Shown one piece after another: positions 16,653 to 43,660 of a DNA stretch of 63,730 bases. The position numbers and the translations under genes were made by a program. Each line of letters opens with the position of its first letter. Position 1 is the first letter of the stretch. Source of the DNA: a virus (lineage: Duplodnaviria; Caudoviricetes); IMG/VR virus record IMGVR_UViG_3300048837_001215, positions 1 to 63,730 of that record; one strand, given 5' to 3'. Under the pieces are notes generated by a model that did not search any database, was not told the DNA's origin, and worked only from the letters and a program-made list of their open reading frames with translations.

Positions 16653-16780
16653 TGGTATGGGGAGTGGGATTTGAACCCACAATATTTCGGGCTGTGATTT
16701 GTTTTTCGGAGAGTGAAATCATTTAACCCAATTTCCACTAGCTACTGGGCACCGAGCGTCTACCATTCCGCCATCCCCAT
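16653..16780 (-). ncRNA. Oversized tRNA-Leu-like RNA with encoded CCA (128 nt)
   Basis: Acceptor ATGGGGA/TCCCCAT + A-CCA; D-arm GCG-GAATGGTAGA-CGC; T-arm GTGGG-TTCAAAT-CCCAC; branched centre in place of an anticodon arm. Confidence 0.8.
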
Positions 16781-37475: not shown

Positions 37476-38012
37476 TTATGATTCGATCAGATTCCAAACA
37501 AGATGAATGAAATTCAGATATCTGATTCTATTTTCATCGTTTTCTTTATAGTGATTTTTTACAGCTTCTTCGAACTCAAGAAGATTTCCAGAAAAACAAC
37601 CACATTTAACCTGGATGATATCACAATCCCAGTAAACTATTGTTTGTGAGTCTCTTGATCCCATATATGGGGAGGTAATCCTTGATGGACTTCTTTTGAA
37701 GCCCCAGCAGTCCTGGCAGCCCCAGCATTCCCAGCATTCCCGGCAGTCCTGGCATTCCCGGCAGTCCTGGCAGCCCCAGCAGTTCCGGCAGTTCCGGCAG
37801 TTCCGGCAGTCCCAGCAGTCCTGGCATTCCCAGCATTCCCAGCATTCCCGGCAGTCCTGGCAGCCCCAGCAGTCCTGGCAGTTCCGGCAGTTCCGGCAGT
37901 TCCGGCAGTTTATCATAGTTTTGGAATGAGAGGTTGCTTGGGTTTTTGTAAAATAATTGCAATTCCAACTATTGTTATTTCCATCTATCCAATATCCGTT
38001 TTTCTTTTTCAT
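37476..38012 (-). CDS. Cys-repeat (CxxCxx)n solenoid-like protein
   Basis: 23 Cxx units followed by a GSR...CGCFSG...F capping domain. Confidence 0.7.
   Translation of the reverse strand: MKKKNGYWIDGNNNSWNCNYFTKTQATSHSKTMINCRNCRNCRNCQDCWGCQDCRECWECWECQDCWDCRNCRNCRNCWGCQDCRECQDCRECWECWGCQDCWGFKRSPSRITSPYMGSRDSQTIVYWDCDIIQVKCGCFSGNLLEFEEAVKNHYKENDENRIRYLNFIHLVWNLIES
37701..37907. repeat. 9-bp tandem repeat, 23 units
   Basis: On the - strand: TGC-(CGG/CAG/TGG)-(AAC/GAC/GAA/GGC). Confidence 0.92.
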
Positions 38013-38035
38013 TTGATTTCTCCTTGGTTTTAGAG

Positions 38036-38064
38036 ATTATACCTGATTATTTGAGTTTCGTTAA
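38036..38064 (-). promoter_or_regulatory. Promoter motif TTAACG-N17-TATAAT, copy 4
   Basis: GTTAACGAAA...CAGGTATAAT. Confidence 0.75.
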
Positions 38065-38583
38065 CATTTTTTCGATTTCATGGACAGCTGCCCAATATCT
38101 AGGCCAGGACCATTCCAGGCAATTCCGGCAGTGGTCCTTGATTTCTCTCCTGAGCTTCTTCCTGCTGACTGTGATATCTTCCTTGAAATTTGTCCTCCTT
38201 CTCTTTAGTGGCTGGCTGGCAACCCCTTCAAATAAGCAGTGTACGATCGTTTTGGCATCTTCTGACAAATCCATAACCGCTTTTCTGAAGTCTAGCTGTC
38301 TTTCGATAGAACAGTCTCCAGTAGAGAGGCAAGGGTCGTCCAAACTGGCGGAAAGGATATCGTCCAGGCTTATTGTGTCGAGTTGTTTTTTGGTAGCGTC
38401 CTCCATCTTCTTTTTTCTCAGAGCCAGGTTATTCCAGAGCCATGTGCTGAAAGATCCACATTCTGGATTATAGGTCCGGCAAGCCTTCAGATATGGTTCG
38501 ACTCCTTCTCCATCCTTCATGGCTTGCCAGCCCAGGACCTTTACTATGATTCCTTCGTGTTTTTGATAATCTTCCTCTCTCAT
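38047..38583 (-). CDS. Sigma70 region 2-like phage transcription factor
   Basis: YLKACRTYNPECGSFSTWL resembles sigma region 2.3. Confidence 0.5.
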   Translation of the reverse strand: MREEDYQKHEGIIVKVLGWQAMKDGEGVEPYLKACRTYNPECGSFSTWLWNNLALRKKKMEDATKKQLDTISLDDILSASLDDPCLSTGDCSIERQLDFRKAVMDLSEDAKTIVHCLFEGVASQPLKRRRTNFKEDITVSRKKLRREIKDHCRNCLEWSWPRYWAAVHEIEKMLTKLK

Positions 38584-38669
38584 CTCAGTACCAGCTCCAG
38601 GAATCCAACTATGAAATATACAAAAGGAATCAGAACGAGAAATACAAACCCTCCAAAAAATGTTTTCAT
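38580..38669 (-). CDS. 29-aa hydrophobic peptide
   Basis: MKTFFGGFVFLVLIPFVYFIVGFLELVLR; GGAG RBS; coupled to the next gene. Confidence 0.5.
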   Translation of the reverse strand: MKTFFGGFVFLVLIPFVYFIVGFLELVLR

Positions 38670-38681
38670 GGCGGTCTCCAA

Positions 38682-38861
38682 TTAAGAGTTTATCATCTGG
38701 GCAACTTCTTTCCAGGCCGCAGCGGCTTTGGCAACATCTCTTTTAGTTCTCCTGATGATCACCCCATGAGGGGTTTTGGCACGCCATTCTCTGCCGACTT
38801 TGAATGCTCGATAGAGGGGAGCAGAGTGAAAATTCTTGGTTTGAGCGATTGCATTTTTCAT
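38682..38861 (-). CDS. 59-aa basic early protein
   Basis: AAGGAG RBS; MKNAIAQTKNFHSAP... Confidence 0.55.
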   Translation of the reverse strand: MKNAIAQTKNFHSAPLYRAFKVGREWRAKTPHGVIIRRTKRDVAKAAAAWKEVAQMINS

Positions 38862-38958
38862 TTACTTCTCCTTTATTTGATAAGGGTTTCCAGTAGGTAA
38901 TATGCCGGCATCAACGACCAAAGCAAAATCATGAGAAAGTATTTCATAGACCCTCCAA

Positions 38959-39180
38959 TTATGCTTCTGAGTGGCCTTCTTTATCCAACCAGCAGTCTCT
39001 TCTGATCCTGCAATTCTCCAGGGATGGCCCTACGCAACTGAACAATTCTCCAGTTATAGTTCGGTAGTCATACTGGAAGAAGATCCTTCCCCGGGTTTGA
39101 AATCTCTCCCATTCTTCCATTCCATTCTTGGTGGTGGAACAACCTTTCTTGTTCATTGTTTTGCCTCCATTAGTATCCAT
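38959..39180 (-). CDS. Small early protein (DUF3873-like)
   Basis: GCST...QYDYRTITGELFSCV...CR..RD.W. Confidence 0.6.
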   Translation of the reverse strand: MDTNGGKTMNKKGCSTTKNGMEEWERFQTRGRIFFQYDYRTITGELFSCVGPSLENCRIRRDCWLDKEGHSEA

Positions 39181-39394
39181 GTTTGCTCAGAAAAGAAGCG
39201 GTGTTGCTGCAGATAGAGTGACTGGTGGAAACATTGGGGCCTTTTCTCCATGCCCCTACCTTGCCAATATAATAGAACATTCGGTCATCGGGATTGGTCG
39301 GTTTGAATTGCCGATATTTCTTGCTTGATGATTTTACTTCCTGCAGACCTTTGTCGATTAAATATTGGCAAAGCCTATCTTGCAACGTTTTCAT
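39170..39394 (-). CDS. Small early protein
   Basis: GAGG RBS before MKTLQDR. Confidence 0.5.
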   Translation of the reverse strand: MKTLQDRLCQYLIDKGLQEVKSSSKKYRQFKPTNPDDRMFYYIGKVGAWRKGPNVSTSHSICSNTASFLSKHGY

Positions 39395-39612
39395 AACTTT
39401 GACTCCTCTATACAACCTTGGCAATTACATTTTACAATATTTGGTTTATAAAGTTTATTGAAAACTTCTTCCCAGGTATCTTCATGGATACAATGGGTTC
39501 CATCTACATCATTGAGGAGACCGTTTTTGAGATAAACCCAAATTCCATCTCCACTGGATCGTTCATCAGAAATTTCTTTGATAACTGATTTTTGCCATTT
39601 GGTCAGTTTCAT
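39391..39612 (-). CDS. Small early protein
   Basis: GGAGG RBS before MKLTKWQ. Confidence 0.55.
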   Translation of the reverse strand: MKLTKWQKSVIKEISDERSSGDGIWVYLKNGLLNDVDGTHCIHEDTWEEVFNKLYKPNIVKCNCQGCIEESKL

Positions 39613-39701
39613 AACTTCCTCCATTTGAATTGATCTGTACTTTTGCCTGACCGCTTGTCCCTGGCCTCCACTTGGAAGGCCAGGAAGCAGCTTTCAGTTT
39701 C

Positions 39702-39971
39702 TTATCCAATATAGAAGGATTCAAAATCTACAGTAGGAATGGTCAATTCAATCTTGGCCCCTCGTGGCTCAAAGTGTTCAAGGCAGTCTTTAATTGTGTC
39801 GATGAAAACAACCTTGGAAACCTTCACTGAAGACATTCCAGGAAAGTATTTATCATCTCCGGTCGGAAGGTGTGGGGTTGTTCTTACTCGAAAGCCAATG
39901 TGTTTCAGATTCCGTTTTTTGTTGACTTCCTTTATGGCCTCTTGAATGGTACATTCTTTTCTCATTGACAT
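39702..39971 (-). CDS. Small early protein
   Basis: AAGGAG RBS directly 3' of a hammerhead. Confidence 0.6.
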   Translation of the reverse strand: MSMRKECTIQEAIKEVNKKRNLKHIGFRVRTTPHLPTGDDKYFPGMSSVKVSKVVFIDTIKDCLEHFEPRGAKIELTIPTVDFESFYIG

Positions 39972-39994
39972 AATCAGCTCCTTTATGGCTTTGT

Positions 39995-40048
39995 GATTGT
40001 TTCGGCCATCTGGCCTCTTCAGTGCTGGTTAAGATCCAGCAGACAATC
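39995..40048 (-). ncRNA. Type III hammerhead ribozyme (second in transcript)
   Basis: GATTG-TC^-TGCTGG-ATCTTAA-CCAGCA-CTGAAGA-GGCC-AGAT-GGCC-GAA-ACAATC: complete core and three stems. Confidence 0.93.
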
Positions 40049-40082
40049 TGGCCAGTTTAACGACGTGGCCGGGTCGGTGGGG

Positions 40083-40451
40083 TTATTTGCGATACGGCTT
40101 CATTGCTTCTTCGTAAGTTTTTGACTGGGGTGTCATTTTGGAAATAGATTCTATCCTGGAAATCATGGTCTTCTTGTAACTTTCCCCGGCATTATTGAAT
40201 TGTTCAAGTCTGTTTTTACAACGTTTAATTTCAGCTGCCATTTCCTCTCTTGCCATTTCAAGGGCTGATTTTTGAGGATTTTCATAATCTATTTTGAGGC
40301 TTGGGTTGAAGTTCATGCCAAGGCATCTCCCATCATTAGACATCAGAATCATTTTCTTTTTACCACATGAATACACGCAACAAGGCTCATAAACTGCCGT
40401 ATTTTCGTTCCACATTCTGATGTAGTATCCAATATCACCCTTTTTATTCAT
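40083..40451 (-). CDS. First early protein, hypothetical
   Basis: TAAGGAG RBS before ATG 40451, directly 3' of a hammerhead. Confidence 0.6.
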   Translation of the reverse strand: MNKKGDIGYYIRMWNENTAVYEPCCVYSCGKKKMILMSNDGRCLGMNFNPSLKIDYENPQKSALEMAREEMAAEIKRCKNRLEQFNNAGESYKKTMISRIESISKMTPQSKTYEEAMKPYRK

Positions 40452-40468
40452 GGCTCTTCTCCTTATTT

Positions 40469-40525
40469 GATTGTTTCGGCCCTGCTGGGCCATCGTCAGT
40501 CGATCAGCTGTAGATCAAGACAATC
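40469..40525 (-). ncRNA. Type III hammerhead ribozyme (first in transcript)
   Basis: GATTG-TC^-TTGATC-TACAGCT-GATCGA-CTGACGA-T-GGCCC-AGCA-GGGCC-GAA-ACAATC; one extra U between A9 and stem II. Confidence 0.9.
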
Positions 40526-40639
40526 CTTCTCCTGGCAAGCGGGGGTTGTTCTCCCTGGCCTGCCTTTTGGGTTCTCGTTTAACCTCCCCCGTTTGTACTC
40601 TCAGGCTCTCCCTGTGGTCCCTCTCTATCCTACAATTAA

Positions 40640-40668
40640 ATAATAGCCTGTTTTTTCAGAGAAGTAAA
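40640..40668 (-). promoter_or_regulatory. Sigma70-like early promoter with upstream A/T tracts
   Basis: TTTACT-N17-TATTAT. Confidence 0.65.
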
Positions 40669-40791
40669 GGAATTTTAAATAAAAAAAGGTAAAAAAGTTT
40701 ATTTTCTTCACATTTCTCCTTTGAAATTGAAATCATTACAAATTTCCAAACTCCAATCCTCCAAGACTAACCCCCTCCCAGGGTCAATCCC

Positions 40792-40820
40792 TTTTCATAC
40801 AGCAAAAATCCAGGTATAAT
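40792..40820 (+). promoter_or_regulatory. Putative rightward (late) promoter
   Basis: TTTTCA-N17-TATAAT, sharing CCAGGTATAAT with the leftward motif; upstream of the small terminase. Confidence 0.55.
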
Positions 40821-40872
40821 CCCATATAAAGGCAAAGAAAATCTAACCTCCAAATCAACAATCAACAAGACC

Positions 40873-41490
40873 ATGACCAGAATCCAACCAGACCAACAAT
40901 CAGCCCCGCAGAAAAAGCGGGTAAAGAAGACCCCAAGGAAAAGACCCACTACCGAGGCCCAGCGGGTAAAGCGGATGAACAAGATCACAGGGGTAGACAA
41001 GATCACCCCTCCCCCGTATCTAAAGACCTCCGACCGATTCTGGGAAGTAAGAAGCACCTTTGGGAGAAAGCCGATATTCTCCTCCCCAGACGAACTGATG
41101 AAAGCCTGCCTGGAATACTTCAACTGGGTAGAAGCACATCCCTTATATGAATATAAGCCTATGGGGCTATACCAGGGGCAGCCGGTTGTTGAGACGATCC
41201 CGAAGAAGAGGCCGTTCACACTGGGGAGCCTGCACATATTCCTTGATATATCACAGCCGGCATGGCTTGACTACAGAACAAAGAGCCCTGACTTTTCTAT
41301 TGTCTGTGGGGTAGTAGAGCAGGCAATACGGGAGCAGAAGTTCGCAGGGGCAGCAGCCGGGTTCTTCAATCATGCTATAATAGCAAGGGATCTGGGGTTG
41401 GTTGATCGGCAGGATGTAACAAGCGGTGGGGAGAAGCTGCAGAATCAATCGGTGGTAGTTTTGCCATCCAAGGAAGAAATTCCAGCGTGA
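40873..41490 (+). CDS. Terminase small subunit (P22 gp3-like)
   Basis: GRKPIFSSPDEL..AC.EYF.W...PL; QKFAGAAAG..N..IIARDLGL. Confidence 0.88.
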   Translation: MTRIQPDQQSAPQKKRVKKTPRKRPTTEAQRVKRMNKITGVDKITPPPYLKTSDRFWEVRSTFGRKPIFSSPDELMKACLEYFNWVEAHPLYEYKPMGLYQGQPVVETIPKKRPFTLGSLHIFLDISQPAWLDYRTKSPDFSIVCGVVEQAIREQKFAGAAAGFFNHAIIARDLGLVDRQDVTSGGEKLQNQSVVVLPSKEEIPA

Positions 41491-42899
41491 CAAAAGCAAT
41501 GCCTTCTATACCAGGGGTTCCTCCTGGAGCAAGGATAGTGGGACCGCAACCCGGCCCGCAAACGCAGTTCTTGACTTCACCAGCCGAAGTCATCATATAT
41601 GGAGGATCGGCTGGCGGAGGGAAGTCATACGCCCTCTTGTTAGATCCTCTTTATCATGTAAATAACTCCAAGTTCGGATCGGTCATCTTCCGGCGCACTA
41701 CAAAACAAATTACGAATGAGGGCGGATTGTGGGATACCGCTTCCGACCTCTATACCAGTCTCGGTGATGGCGACAGGGCCAGGATGATTCAGAGCCCTGC
41801 TCTTCACGCCATGTTCCCCAGTGGGATGAAGGTCAGCTTCCATCACATGGAGCACGAGACCACCAGACACGACTGGCAGGGCTCCCAGCTTCCTGATGTA
41901 AAGTTCGATGAGTTGACTCACTTTACCTGGAAGCAGTTCAACTATATGATTTCCAGGATGCGGTCAGATGCCGGCGTAGTTCCGACGCTGAAAGCTACTA
42001 CCAATCCAGATCCGGACAGTTGGGTTCGATCTTTCATTGATTGGTATATTGGGGAGGATGGATTTGCCATCCCCGAGAGATCCGGCAAGATCCGATGGTT
42101 TATTGTTGATGGGGATGAAGTGGTATGGGGGAATACCAGGGATGAGTTAATTGCCAAATTCCCGCGCTCATTGCCAAAGAGTTTCACCTTTATCCGCTCG
42201 TCTGTATATGACAATAAGATTCTCCTGGAAACCAACCCTGGATACCTCTCTAATCTCCATGCCCTGACAAGAGTCGAGAAAGCGCGATTACTCGACGGGA
42301 ATTGGGATGTCAGGGCAACGGCAGGCACTTACTTCAAACGCAGCGATTTCGAGGTTGTAGATGCCGTTCCTGGCATAGCAAAGCGGGTCAGGGCCTGGGA
42401 TCTTGCCGGTACTGAGCGGAAAGATACAGCAGAGAGAAGAGAACGGAAAGCAGGTGATCCCGACTGGACAGCCGGAGTCCGAATGAGCAAGACAGATGAC
42501 GGCCTGTACTTCGTTGAGCACATAGAAAGGTTTAGGGAGGACCCGCCAAAGGTTGCAGGAAGAGTAAAAGCCATTGCTGGCCAGGACGGCAGAAGAGTTC
42601 GGGTCAGGCTCCCACAGGACCCAGGGCAAGCGGGGAAAGCCCAGGTCAAGTCGTACATTATGATGCTGAATGGATTTTTAGTTACTGCTCTTCCGGTAAC
42701 TGGGAGCAAAGAGCATCGTGCAGGGCCAGCAAGCACACAGGCTCAGGCCGGCAATATAAAGGTATTGAGAGGACCATGGAACGAGGCTTTCTTTTCGGAG
42801 TTGGAGAACTTTCCGGAAGGGCTCCATGATGATCAGGTGGATGCATTCTCTGATGCGTATGATGAGCTTACCACAACGAGACGAGTAGGGGTCTGGTAA
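41487..42899 (+). CDS. Terminase large subunit
   Basis: GGSAGGGKS, FDEL, TTNP, RAWDLA, HDDQVDA. Confidence 0.93.
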   Translation: MTKAMPSIPGVPPGARIVGPQPGPQTQFLTSPAEVIIYGGSAGGGKSYALLLDPLYHVNNSKFGSVIFRRTTKQITNEGGLWDTASDLYTSLGDGDRARMIQSPALHAMFPSGMKVSFHHMEHETTRHDWQGSQLPDVKFDELTHFTWKQFNYMISRMRSDAGVVPTLKATTNPDPDSWVRSFIDWYIGEDGFAIPERSGKIRWFIVDGDEVVWGNTRDELIAKFPRSLPKSFTFIRSSVYDNKILLETNPGYLSNLHALTRVEKARLLDGNWDVRATAGTYFKRSDFEVVDAVPGIAKRVRAWDLAGTERKDTAERRERKAGDPDWTAGVRMSKTDDGLYFVEHIERFREDPPKVAGRVKAIAGQDGRRVRVRLPQDPGQAGKAQVKSYIMMLNGFLVTALPVTGSKEHRAGPASTQAQAGNIKVLRGPWNEAFFSELENFPEGLHDDQVDAFSDAYDELTTTRRVGVW

Positions 42900-43660
42900 T
42901 GAATACAACCTCAGTGATTGTCATTATCCCAGCCAGGATAGGGTCTTCCCGTCTTCCGAATAAACCTTTGGCAGACATCAGGGGAAAGTCCACTATCCAG
43001 AGAGTATGGGAGAAGGCACAGCAGATCAAAGGGGTCTCCAACTTAGTGGTTTCTACCGACAGTATTCTGGTCGAAAGGGAAGTTTTGAAGTTTGGCGGGA
43101 AGGTAGTCAGGACCGGAGGATGTAGGACAGGATCGGATAGGGTAGCTTTGACCATGTGGGAGTACTTTCACGATTCGCATCCAATGGAAATAGTGGTTAA
43201 TCTCCAGGGCGATCTCCCATTTGTCGAGTCTGAAGTGGTAGAGGAATTGGTTGCCGAACTGGAAAAAAATCCAAAGATGGATATGGTTACGCCGGCAATT
43301 CGCCAAACTTCCTTGTCTCAGTTGTGGGCTTCTTCAGACACGGTGAAGGCTATAAAGGGGAAAGACGGTGAGGCCAGATACTTCTCCCGCTCCCCTATTC
43401 CTTTTGGGATTGACCGCTTGGGGTATTGGTATCATCATTATGGGGTATATGCTTGGAGAAACGAACCCCTGCAAGCGTTTGCTCATGCTAATTCCACATC
43501 TTGGGAGATTGCAGAGGGGCTGGAGCAGTTGAGGGCGGTAGAGATGGGCATGAAGGTTAAACTGATGGAAACAACTTACGAGCCTGGAATTGAGATCAAT
43601 ACCTACAAAGATTTGATTGCTGCCAGATTGTATTGCAACTCCCTGGAGGAAGGGAAATGA
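42899..43660 (+). CDS. kdsB: CMP-Kdo synthetase (3-deoxy-manno-octulosonate cytidylyltransferase)
   Basis: IIPARIGSSRLPNKPLADI.GK, TGSDR, VNLQGD, YFSRSPIP, H.GVY, LEQLRA. Confidence 0.9.
   Translation: MNTTSVIVIIPARIGSSRLPNKPLADIRGKSTIQRVWEKAQQIKGVSNLVVSTDSILVEREVLKFGGKVVRTGGCRTGSDRVALTMWEYFHDSHPMEIVVNLQGDLPFVESEVVEELVAELEKNPKMDMVTPAIRQTSLSQLWASSDTVKAIKGKDGEARYFSRSPIPFGIDRLGYWYHHYGVYAWRNEPLQAFAHANSTSWEIAEGLEQLRAVEMGMKVKLMETTYEPGIEINTYKDLIAARLYCNSLEEGK

Follow-up and report, generated by a model that had tools for sequence, protein, structure and literature searches.

Two type III hammerhead motifs precede the first genes of a phage operon and may insulate exchangeable gene cassettes

The window analysed here is the entire IMG/VR record IMGVR_UViG_3300048837_001215, a Caudoviricetes genome of 63,730 nucleotides (nt) that is about 99% complete and has 46.8% G+C. 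On its minus strand, two hammerhead ribozyme motifs, HH1 and HH2, stand directly before the Shine-Dalgarno (SD) sequences of the first two genes of an operon, the open reading frames ORF1 and ORF2. We favour, with a probability of about 55%, the reading that both are genuine type III hammerheads whose co-transcriptional cleavage gives insulated ORF1 and ORF2 messages in exchangeable cassettes. The ribozymes would fold while the RNA is being made and would cut themselves after C40519 and C40042. These cuts would remove a leader of about 110 nt, free ORF1 as a single-gene RNA of 477 nt and give the remainder of the operon, from ORF2 onward, a new 5' end. Each downstream product would start with a 5'-OH and the hairpins of stems I and II, followed by an unpaired SD 4-11 nt past the ribozyme. 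How well each small accessory gene is translated, and how stable its RNA is, would no longer depend on the sequence upstream. This would suit genes that related phages appear to exchange through DNA recombination, with crossovers in the ribozymes or next to them.

Both strands of the genome were scanned with our own type III descriptor. The conserved hammerhead core consists of C3 U4 G5 A6 N7 G8 A9, G12 A13 A14, an A15.1-U16.1 pair and H17 (not G). The whole genome contained exactly two matches, HH1 and HH2, both on the minus strand (Table 1). In HH1, GAUUGU and C17 precede the cut, followed by stem I with its loop (UUGAUC-UACAGCU-GAUCGA), CUGACGA, a single U, stem II with its loop (GGCCC-AGCA-GGGCC), GAA and ACAAUC. 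The parts of HH2 are, in the same order, GAUUGU and C17, the cut, UGCUGG-AUCUUAA-CCAGCA, CUGAAGA, GGCC-AGAU-GGCC, GAA and ACAAUC. The HH2 core is exact (CUGAAGA, GAA, A-U, C17), whereas that of HH1 (CUGACGA-U) is complete but carries one inserted U between A9 and G10.1. Both have the A15.1-U16.1 pair, C17 and a GUC cleavage triplet, and the pairs adjoining the core are G-C at 10.1-11.1 and U-A at 1.1-2.1. Stem III is open in both, and stems I and II are closed by loops. All 12 bases of stem III (GAUUGU/ACAAUC) are common to HH1 and HH2, whereas 8 of the 10 innermost positions of stem I differ and still pair in each copy. The longest exact repeat between the two copies is 14 nt. The predicted cuts, 40519/40518 and 40042/40041, are spaced by 477 nt, and the SD sequence begins 4 nt after HH1 and 11 nt after HH2.

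A sequence-only reading of this DNA had already described two minus-strand hammerheads with identical stem III, GUC triplets and stems I and II that differ but pair in each copy, placed just 5' of the ribosome-binding sites of the first two operon genes. The sequence and the descriptor scan bear out this anatomy. The cut positions it gave agree with the sequence, and the piece between the cuts, put at about 477 nt with one ORF, is exactly 477 nt and holds ORF1. The extra U in HH1 was the sole detail missing from that description. An extra core nucleotide at the same position, between A9 and G10.1, is said to have been noted by De la Pena and Flores in 2001 in the (+) hammerhead of chrysanthemum chlorotic mottle viroid (CChMVd), where it is reportedly an A; in HH1 it is a U.

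When 300 dinucleotide-preserving shuffles of the genome were scanned with the same descriptor, none (0/300) gave a match with all stems of at least 4 base pairs (bp). Loose matches with stems of at least 3 bp numbered 40 and were spread over 33 of the 300 shuffles. Chance does not account for the HH1 and HH2 motifs. Covariance models were built from descriptor matches, with training on phage type III hammerheads and with the window and the related contig L017 left out: R1 from 38 sequences that lack the extra U and R2 from 27 that carry it. In a search of the whole window with filters off, R1 scored HH2 at 57.4 bits (E 1.4e-13) and HH1 at 47.6 bits, and R2 scored HH1 at 66.2 bits (E 1.8e-15) and HH2 at 41.8 bits. 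The next best matches in the window reached 13.9 bits (R1) and 13.0 bits (R2). As motifs, HH2 is very probably genuine, and for HH1 our confidence is somewhat lower because of the competing fold described below.

The two motifs have many kin among phages. The same stem III, combined with other stems I and II, was found at 22 viral contig loci, and 15 of these form a full hammerhead by the descriptor. A scan of viral contigs for the stem II GGCC gave at least 120 stretches, and the extra-U variant of HH1 is common, with at least 117 viral contig stretches. Compensatory changes are seen between the HH1 and HH2 copies and across unrelated phage hammerheads. The Rfam hammerhead models under-detect this phage population: the hammerhead at 5808-5863 of L002 scored 41.3 bits with RF00008 (E 1.3e-5), under the gathering score of 48.5 bits, and a match to the RAGATH-1 hammerhead in L014 scored 38.8 bits.

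As a criterion for speed at low Mg2+ we used a contact between loops 1 and 2, either the U/A contact of Dufour 2009 or a loop-loop pseudoknot (Perreault 2011). Passages in Dufour et al. (PMC2632901) describe that in many natural hammerheads the 5' U of a 7-nt loop 1 contacts the 3' A of loop 2. In our comparison set of 94 other distinct phage type III hammerheads, taken among the loci listed, 51 have this combination. It is also present in HH1, where loop 1 has U at both ends and the last base of loop 2 is A. The HH1 loops are complementary as well (GCU:AGC), and within the extra-U class this complementarity recurs with covarying bases (UGCC:GGCA, CCU:AGG, GUC:GAC). The loops of HH2 are complementary over AUCU:AGAU. 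Complementary loop-loop runs of at least 4 were observed in 15.6%, versus 4.1% of shuffled loops.

Two related contigs carry the same ribozymes. L258, a metagenome contig of 64,233 nt, is 99.2% identical over 1,425 nt with both HH1 and HH2 unchanged. L017, a contig of 4 kb, has HH1 unchanged and is 95% identical over the intergenic region of about 350 nt (40526-40872) that lies between the plus-strand and minus-strand gene blocks. Its small terminase, beside this well-conserved flank of HH1, is just 60% identical in protein. An alignment of 40526-40872 to positions 100-447 of L017 placed a sharp mosaic boundary next to the ribozyme, with the intergenic region and HH1 95-100% identical. Relatives of the small terminase were found at 4 loci, and L017 alone has a hammerhead. 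Scans for the stem I of HH1 or HH2 with any stem II, seeking a hybrid as DNA, found no hybrid; the only hits were L017 among the viral contigs and L258 among the metagenome contigs, both in the two-ribozyme form.

Variant arrangements were found in contigs of four wastewater runs from one study, aligned to 39000-41500 at 90% likeness (five candidate runs contain 5-13% of the sampled words and four of them were used; uncovered stretches were given no interpretation). In three of the four runs, one contig each joins 40015 to 40493 and skips 477 nt. The joint has 52 nt on its shorter side and a positional ambiguity of 2 nt. These contigs carry one hybrid hammerhead, consisting of the 5' half of HH1 through A9 and of HH2 from stem II onward. 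The joint lies in the catalytic core, not at the cleavage site, and is therefore not a product of ribozyme ligation; it probably comes from related genomes without the ORF1 unit. That the hybrid lacks exactly 477 nt points to recombination between the two ribozymes, which is new here.

Further joints were seen downstream. In run X2, one contig has 39704-39958 (ORF2) replaced by 226 other letters, so a different ORF2 would stand behind the same ribozyme. One contig joins 40604 to 39696, skipping 907 nt, and has lost both hammerheads, ORF1 and ORF2; one skips 218 nt (39388-39607) with 8 nt shared at the junction; and in one the 19 nt preceding HH1 come straight after the hairpin downstream of ORF2 (39684-39660). 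The last few of these joints are weaker, with just 30-39 nt on the shorter side at 90% likeness. The joints at 39696, 39704 and 39658 lie at or beside the hairpin, which may be the 3' boundary of exchangeable cassettes. Taken together, the joints indicate that small ORFs are apparently exchanged between conserved boundaries, the ribozyme and SD upstream and the hairpin downstream. The small-ORF region is highly mosaic. A crossover within a hammerhead parts the strands of the open helix and spares the closed hairpins, and thus only hammerheads that share the open helix give working hybrids. The shared stem III would keep such hybrids foldable.

The same joints could mean that the motifs matter mainly as DNA, as conserved linkers that provide homology for cassette exchange, with RNA cleavage weak, incidental or lost. 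This would fit the location of the variant junctions, which fall in or close beside the ribozymes and at the hairpin downstream of ORF2, and also the strong conservation of the HH1 region in L017 next to a much more divergent small terminase. However, HH1, HH2 and the hybrid all retain an intact core, compensatory stems and a GUC triplet, none of which a linker would need, and the longest exact repeat between the copies is short. We hold this explanation to be very unlikely.

The identical stem III also bears on the fate of the 477-nt piece. Because of the established chemistry of hammerheads, cleavage would leave 5'-OH and 2',3'-cyclic phosphate ends. The 3' GAUUGU of the piece can pair with the ACAAUC of HH1, and the two ends meet in the hammerhead fold. 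In both the minimum free energy (MFE) fold and the centroid fold of the piece, nt 45-50 pair with nt 471-476, which joins its ends. A circular messenger RNA (mRNA), an idea raised in the sequence-only reading because the ends would suit RtcB, could form in this way: the 3' GAUUGUC with its cyclic phosphate would pair with the HH1 strand and rebuild a nicked hammerhead, and the nick would be sealed by the reverse reaction of the ribozyme or by a host ligase of the RtcB type. The result would be an exonuclease-resistant circular ORF1 message, like viroids and retrozymes. An identical stem III beside a stem I that has changed at most of its innermost positions speaks for this proposal. On the other hand, RtcB is missing from the phage genome, closing the circle would restore an active ribozyme able to recut it, and the fold of the whole piece is no better than that of shuffles (z 0.28). 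The mapped contigs of related phages contain no junction at the cleavage sites; they were rated probably DNA and are uninformative on circles. Circular or spliced products from such arrays were sought by Perreault et al. 2011 and, according to passages of that paper (PMC3088659), not detected, and our literature search found no paper reporting circular mRNAs from phage hammerheads. Moreover, the identical stem III can be explained without a circle, because DNA recombination needs a shared open helix for working hybrids. We consider a circular ORF1 message unlikely.

Neighbouring hammerheads in other phages were compared in the same respect. The sample comprised 257 loci among the matches listed, together with the window, and is biased by the search patterns; by the descriptor it holds 311 hammerheads, 197 of type I and 114 of type III. 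Arrays carry up to five type I copies, each directly before an SD, and in L061, L092 and L090 type I hammerheads precede the SD of each gene. Three to five type I hammerheads, a few nt before the SD of the next small gene, were seen in L061, L092, L099, L071, L090 and L232, where stem I is often identical across the array and stem III varies. Mixed arrays, with type III followed by type I within about 0.7-1.4 kb on the same strand, were seen in L002, L005, L009, L014 and L022.

Cross-compatible open helices were found in 40 of 73 non-redundant adjacent pairs of the same type, versus 8.5% (type I) and 10.6% (type III) of random pairs from different loci. By distance, 25 of 38 pairs under 600 nt were compatible, 14 of 29 at 600-1200 nt and one of six beyond; among adjacent type III pairs the count was 5/10. 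Of the 40 compatible pairs, 32 have closed helices at least 4 edits apart. Both the excess over random pairs and the drift of the closed helices would be expected if units were able to close on themselves. Against this, the open helix is only modestly better conserved between neighbours than the closed one (identity 0.80 versus 0.64; higher in 39 pairs, lower in 22, equal in 12; p=0.04 in a sign test that rests on non-independent pairs). With one pair per locus the result was 21 versus 12 (p=0.16), and the better conservation of open helices in neighbours is a weak trend. Some arrays alternate incompatible stems, as L092 does, and local duplication explains much of the sharing of open helices.

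It seems doubtful to us that the open helix acts as a compatibility code in phage hammerhead arrays, with neighbours keeping the open stem while the closed stems drift. On this reading, any unit between two cuts could close itself as RNA and yield a circular mRNA, and any DNA crossover within a ribozyme would still give a working hybrid. The ORF1 unit would be a natural translatable circular mRNA, the hybrid hammerhead of the relatives being its empty site.

Several observations weigh against fast co-transcriptional cleavage by HH1 and HH2 and against the insulation proposed from it. For HH1, the MFE structure is a competing hairpin: AUUGUC forms base pairs with the core segment GACGAU (-21.2 kcal/mol versus -17.9 for the active fold). 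This hairpin is 3.3 kcal/mol more stable, makes up 67% of the predicted ensemble and persists with flanks of 20-100 nt and with 5' prefixes mimicking transcription; according to these models the alternative helix would form first during transcription. HH2 alone has the hammerhead fold as its MFE structure (-17.9 kcal/mol, z -3.38), and with flanks of 50-100 nt its stems II and III are lost. Its loop 1 starts with A and its loop 2 ends with U, in place of the common U/A contact; this combination is present in only 2 of the 94 other phage type III hammerheads. The energy models leave out the tertiary structure of hammerheads, and such predicted folds are evidence against assuming fast cleavage. 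With the same flanks, GGCCA/UGGCC words, which recur at 40049-40082 (minus strand) and in stem II of HH2, are predicted to pair in place of HH2; this pairing could be a competing structure or chance.

The Rfam models were negative as well. Rfam 15 gave no hammerhead match in the window at its gathering score, none when 2.5 kb or 551 nt were searched at E<=10 and none at E<=1 over the whole window, and RF00008 alone (gathering score 48.5 bits) gave none at E<=10. The check with Rfam hammerhead models that the sequence-only reading had proposed thus reported neither HH1 nor HH2. Because the training sequences of R1 and R2 had been found via patterns derived from HH1 and HH2 (stem II GGCC and, at the first 22 loci, stem III), their scores are only partly independent and express membership of a large phage class rather than a fully independent discovery. 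At orthologous sites there is no covariation, because the only holders, L017 and L258, are identical there. For terminase relatives at greater distance (L023-L025, L259-L261), the flanks examined contain no hammerhead. The four wastewater runs are labelled RNA-Seq and were rated probably DNA, and their contigs are uninformative on transcription, RNA ends and circles. A search of sequencing runs listed no RNA run that contains the sequence. The Rfam scans of the window gave no twister, pistol, hatchet or hepatitis delta virus (HDV)-like match.

The competing fold of HH1 suggests another possibility, that cleavage is regulated. HH1 would toggle between an inactive extended hairpin, with the cleavage site paired to the core, and the active fold, with conditions or a factor deciding whether the leader is released and ORF1 is expressed. 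The stability of the alternative fold, its share of the ensemble and its persistence with flanks and prefixes speak for such a switch. However, a competing helix of at least 6 bp is found in only three of the 27 extra-U hammerheads, all three with the same stem III as HH1; no ligand- or protein-binding element is evident; and the tertiary contacts of hammerheads are absent from the energy models. We regard regulated cleavage as very unlikely. The competing helix had also been considered as a feature of the extra-U class and was dropped in view of the 3/27 count. With these points taken into account, we retain the reading that HH1 and HH2 cleave during transcription and insulate ORF1 and ORF2.

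The arrangement described here has been known in kind since 2011. As described in passages of Perreault et al. 2011 (PMC3088659), clustered hammerheads flank single prophage genes, with clusters in Clostridium scindens, Azorhizobium caulinodans and the ardA locus of Agrobacterium tumefaciens; three clusters cleave in vitro and one also in E. coli, and the arrangement suggests that long phage transcripts are processed into single-gene mRNAs. As in those clusters, neighbouring hammerheads on the same strand of phage DNA here bracket one gene or a short variable block. Unlike in the clusters as described in those passages, both are of type III, the first follows the operon promoter candidate and stem III is exactly shared. 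Shared open helices are not mentioned in the main-text passages of that paper, whose supplementary alignments may already hold the extra-U class or shared stems. The same passages describe a hammerhead in a halovirus that precedes the first early ORF by 13 nt and whose cut lies no more than 3 nt from the mapped 5' end. This HHphage of haloviruses HF1/HF2 resembles HH1 in standing a few nt before the first ORF of an early polycistronic transcript; it differs, as reported there, by an atypical core insertion, a need for high salt, a single copy and an archaeal virus as its carrier.

Tandem hammerheads of viroids, satellite RNAs and retrozymes offer a second comparison. According to reviews (PMC6765202, PMC5680766 and PMC7229834), the ends of the released unit meet in the hammerhead fold, as is predicted here, and the 5'-OH and cyclic-phosphate ends can be joined by tRNA-ligase or RtcB-type enzymes. 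Those units are repeats of one ribozyme in replicons or retroelements and are mostly non-coding, whereas the ribozymes here differ in stems I and II and the unit is a gene of a DNA phage with its own SD. The role of bacterial and phage ribozymes is called 'largely elusive' in a passage of the 2019 review (PMC6765202).

Synthetic biology offers a third parallel to the insulating role we favour. In synthetic insulators of the RiboJ type, a hammerhead between promoter and ribosome-binding site trims a variable 5' leader and makes expression independent of context. Such insulators were engineered from the hammerhead of a satellite RNA, whereas for phages we infer that insulation is a natural role. 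Protection of the mRNAs by a 5'-OH, as the sequence-only reading had proposed, would depend on the host: in Bacillus, cleavage by the glmS ribozyme leaves a 5'-OH product that RNase J1 degrades.

Table 1. Positions of the hammerhead motifs and neighbouring features in the window
Feature	Positions	Strand	Description	Basis
HH1	40469..40525	-	Type III hammerhead, extra-U class; stems I/II/III 6/5/6 bp; predicted cut after C40519	Descriptor
HH2	39995..40048	-	Canonical type III hammerhead; stems I/II/III 6/4/6 bp; predicted cut after C40042	Descriptor
RNA between predicted cuts	40042..40518	-	HH1 body, SD, ORF1, 5' strand of HH2 stem III and C17	Sequence and descriptor
Promoter candidate	40640..40668	-	Sigma-70-like, TTTACT-17 nt-TATTAT	Consensus scan, 9/12 matches; consensus match alone
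Leader	40526..40632	-	Purine-rich, about 105-110 nt, releasable by HH1 cleavage	Sequence; 5' boundary putative
ORF1	40083..40451	-	122 amino acids, hypothetical; SD AAGGAG 40464-40459; ATG 40451	ORF list
ORF2	39702..39971	-	89 amino acids, hypothetical; SD AAGGAG 39983-39978; ATG 39971	ORF list
Hairpin after ORF2	39660..39684	-	GC-rich, no U tail, directly after ORF2	Sequence

The plus-strand gene block starts with the small terminase (40873-41490), followed by the large terminase (41487-42899). The minus-strand block holds small unknown ORFs and then helicase, primase, DnaD-like and DnaB-like genes, and it is plausible that this operon is an early one, as the sequence-only reading had called it. 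The promoter-like site faces the minus-strand genes about 115 nt upstream of HH1 and is identical in L017. The leader has no significant fold (z-score -1.34). Relative to L017 it has a 2-nt insertion and two or three changes near its 5' end, and its final 80 nt or so before HH1 are identical.

A mechanical ORF call (136 amino acids, 40083-40493, minus strand) begins at an ATG within stem II of HH1; ORF1 likely starts at ATG 40451, behind the SD. For ORF1, PHROGs gave 0 matches, Pfam just a weak DUF6744 match below the cut-off and the viral contigs no protein relatives, and protein Atlas scores were at most 0.81 and uninformative. ORF2 had no PHROG or Pfam match. The hairpin after ORF2 reads CCUGGCCUUCC-AAGU-GGAGGCCAGG.

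A 73-amino-acid ORF of the same operon (38959-39180, minus strand) has a Pfam match to DUF3873 (E 2.8e-19); since this domain is described from Bacteroides thetaiotaomicron, the match gives a weak hint to the host. The large terminase is less than 50% identical to those of phages of many hosts, and in genome contigs it is matched best by a Planctomycetaceae metagenome-assembled genome (MAG), a Methanolobus and a Prevotella MAG, at 55-32% identity. A blastn search of 38000-43000 against GenBank phages gave 0 matches. Elsewhere in the window, 16656-16780 (minus strand) matches the Rfam transfer RNA (tRNA) model with 37.9 bits (E 2e-4). Its acceptor, D and T arms are intact, 68 nt stand in place of the anticodon arm, and the predicted fold retains the acceptor and T stems. 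ARAGORN called no tRNA at 16656-16780. The site may hold a tRNA that is interrupted or degenerate, or else an element that resembles a tRNA.

The role of many hammerheads in phage genomes has been unsettled since 2011, and this locus, with a promoter candidate, two ribozymes and an ORF of 122 amino acids within about 700 nt, is a compact test case. The shared stem III with unrelated other stems, the hybrid relatives lacking the unit and the competing fold of HH1 make the rival explanations directly testable. The Rfam hammerhead models miss a large phage class, and gene callers may bury a ribozyme inside a coding annotation. Should circles form, a DNA phage would be shown to make a circular mRNA naturally; otherwise, the locus would still support a role of ribozymes in marking and insulating exchangeable gene cassettes.

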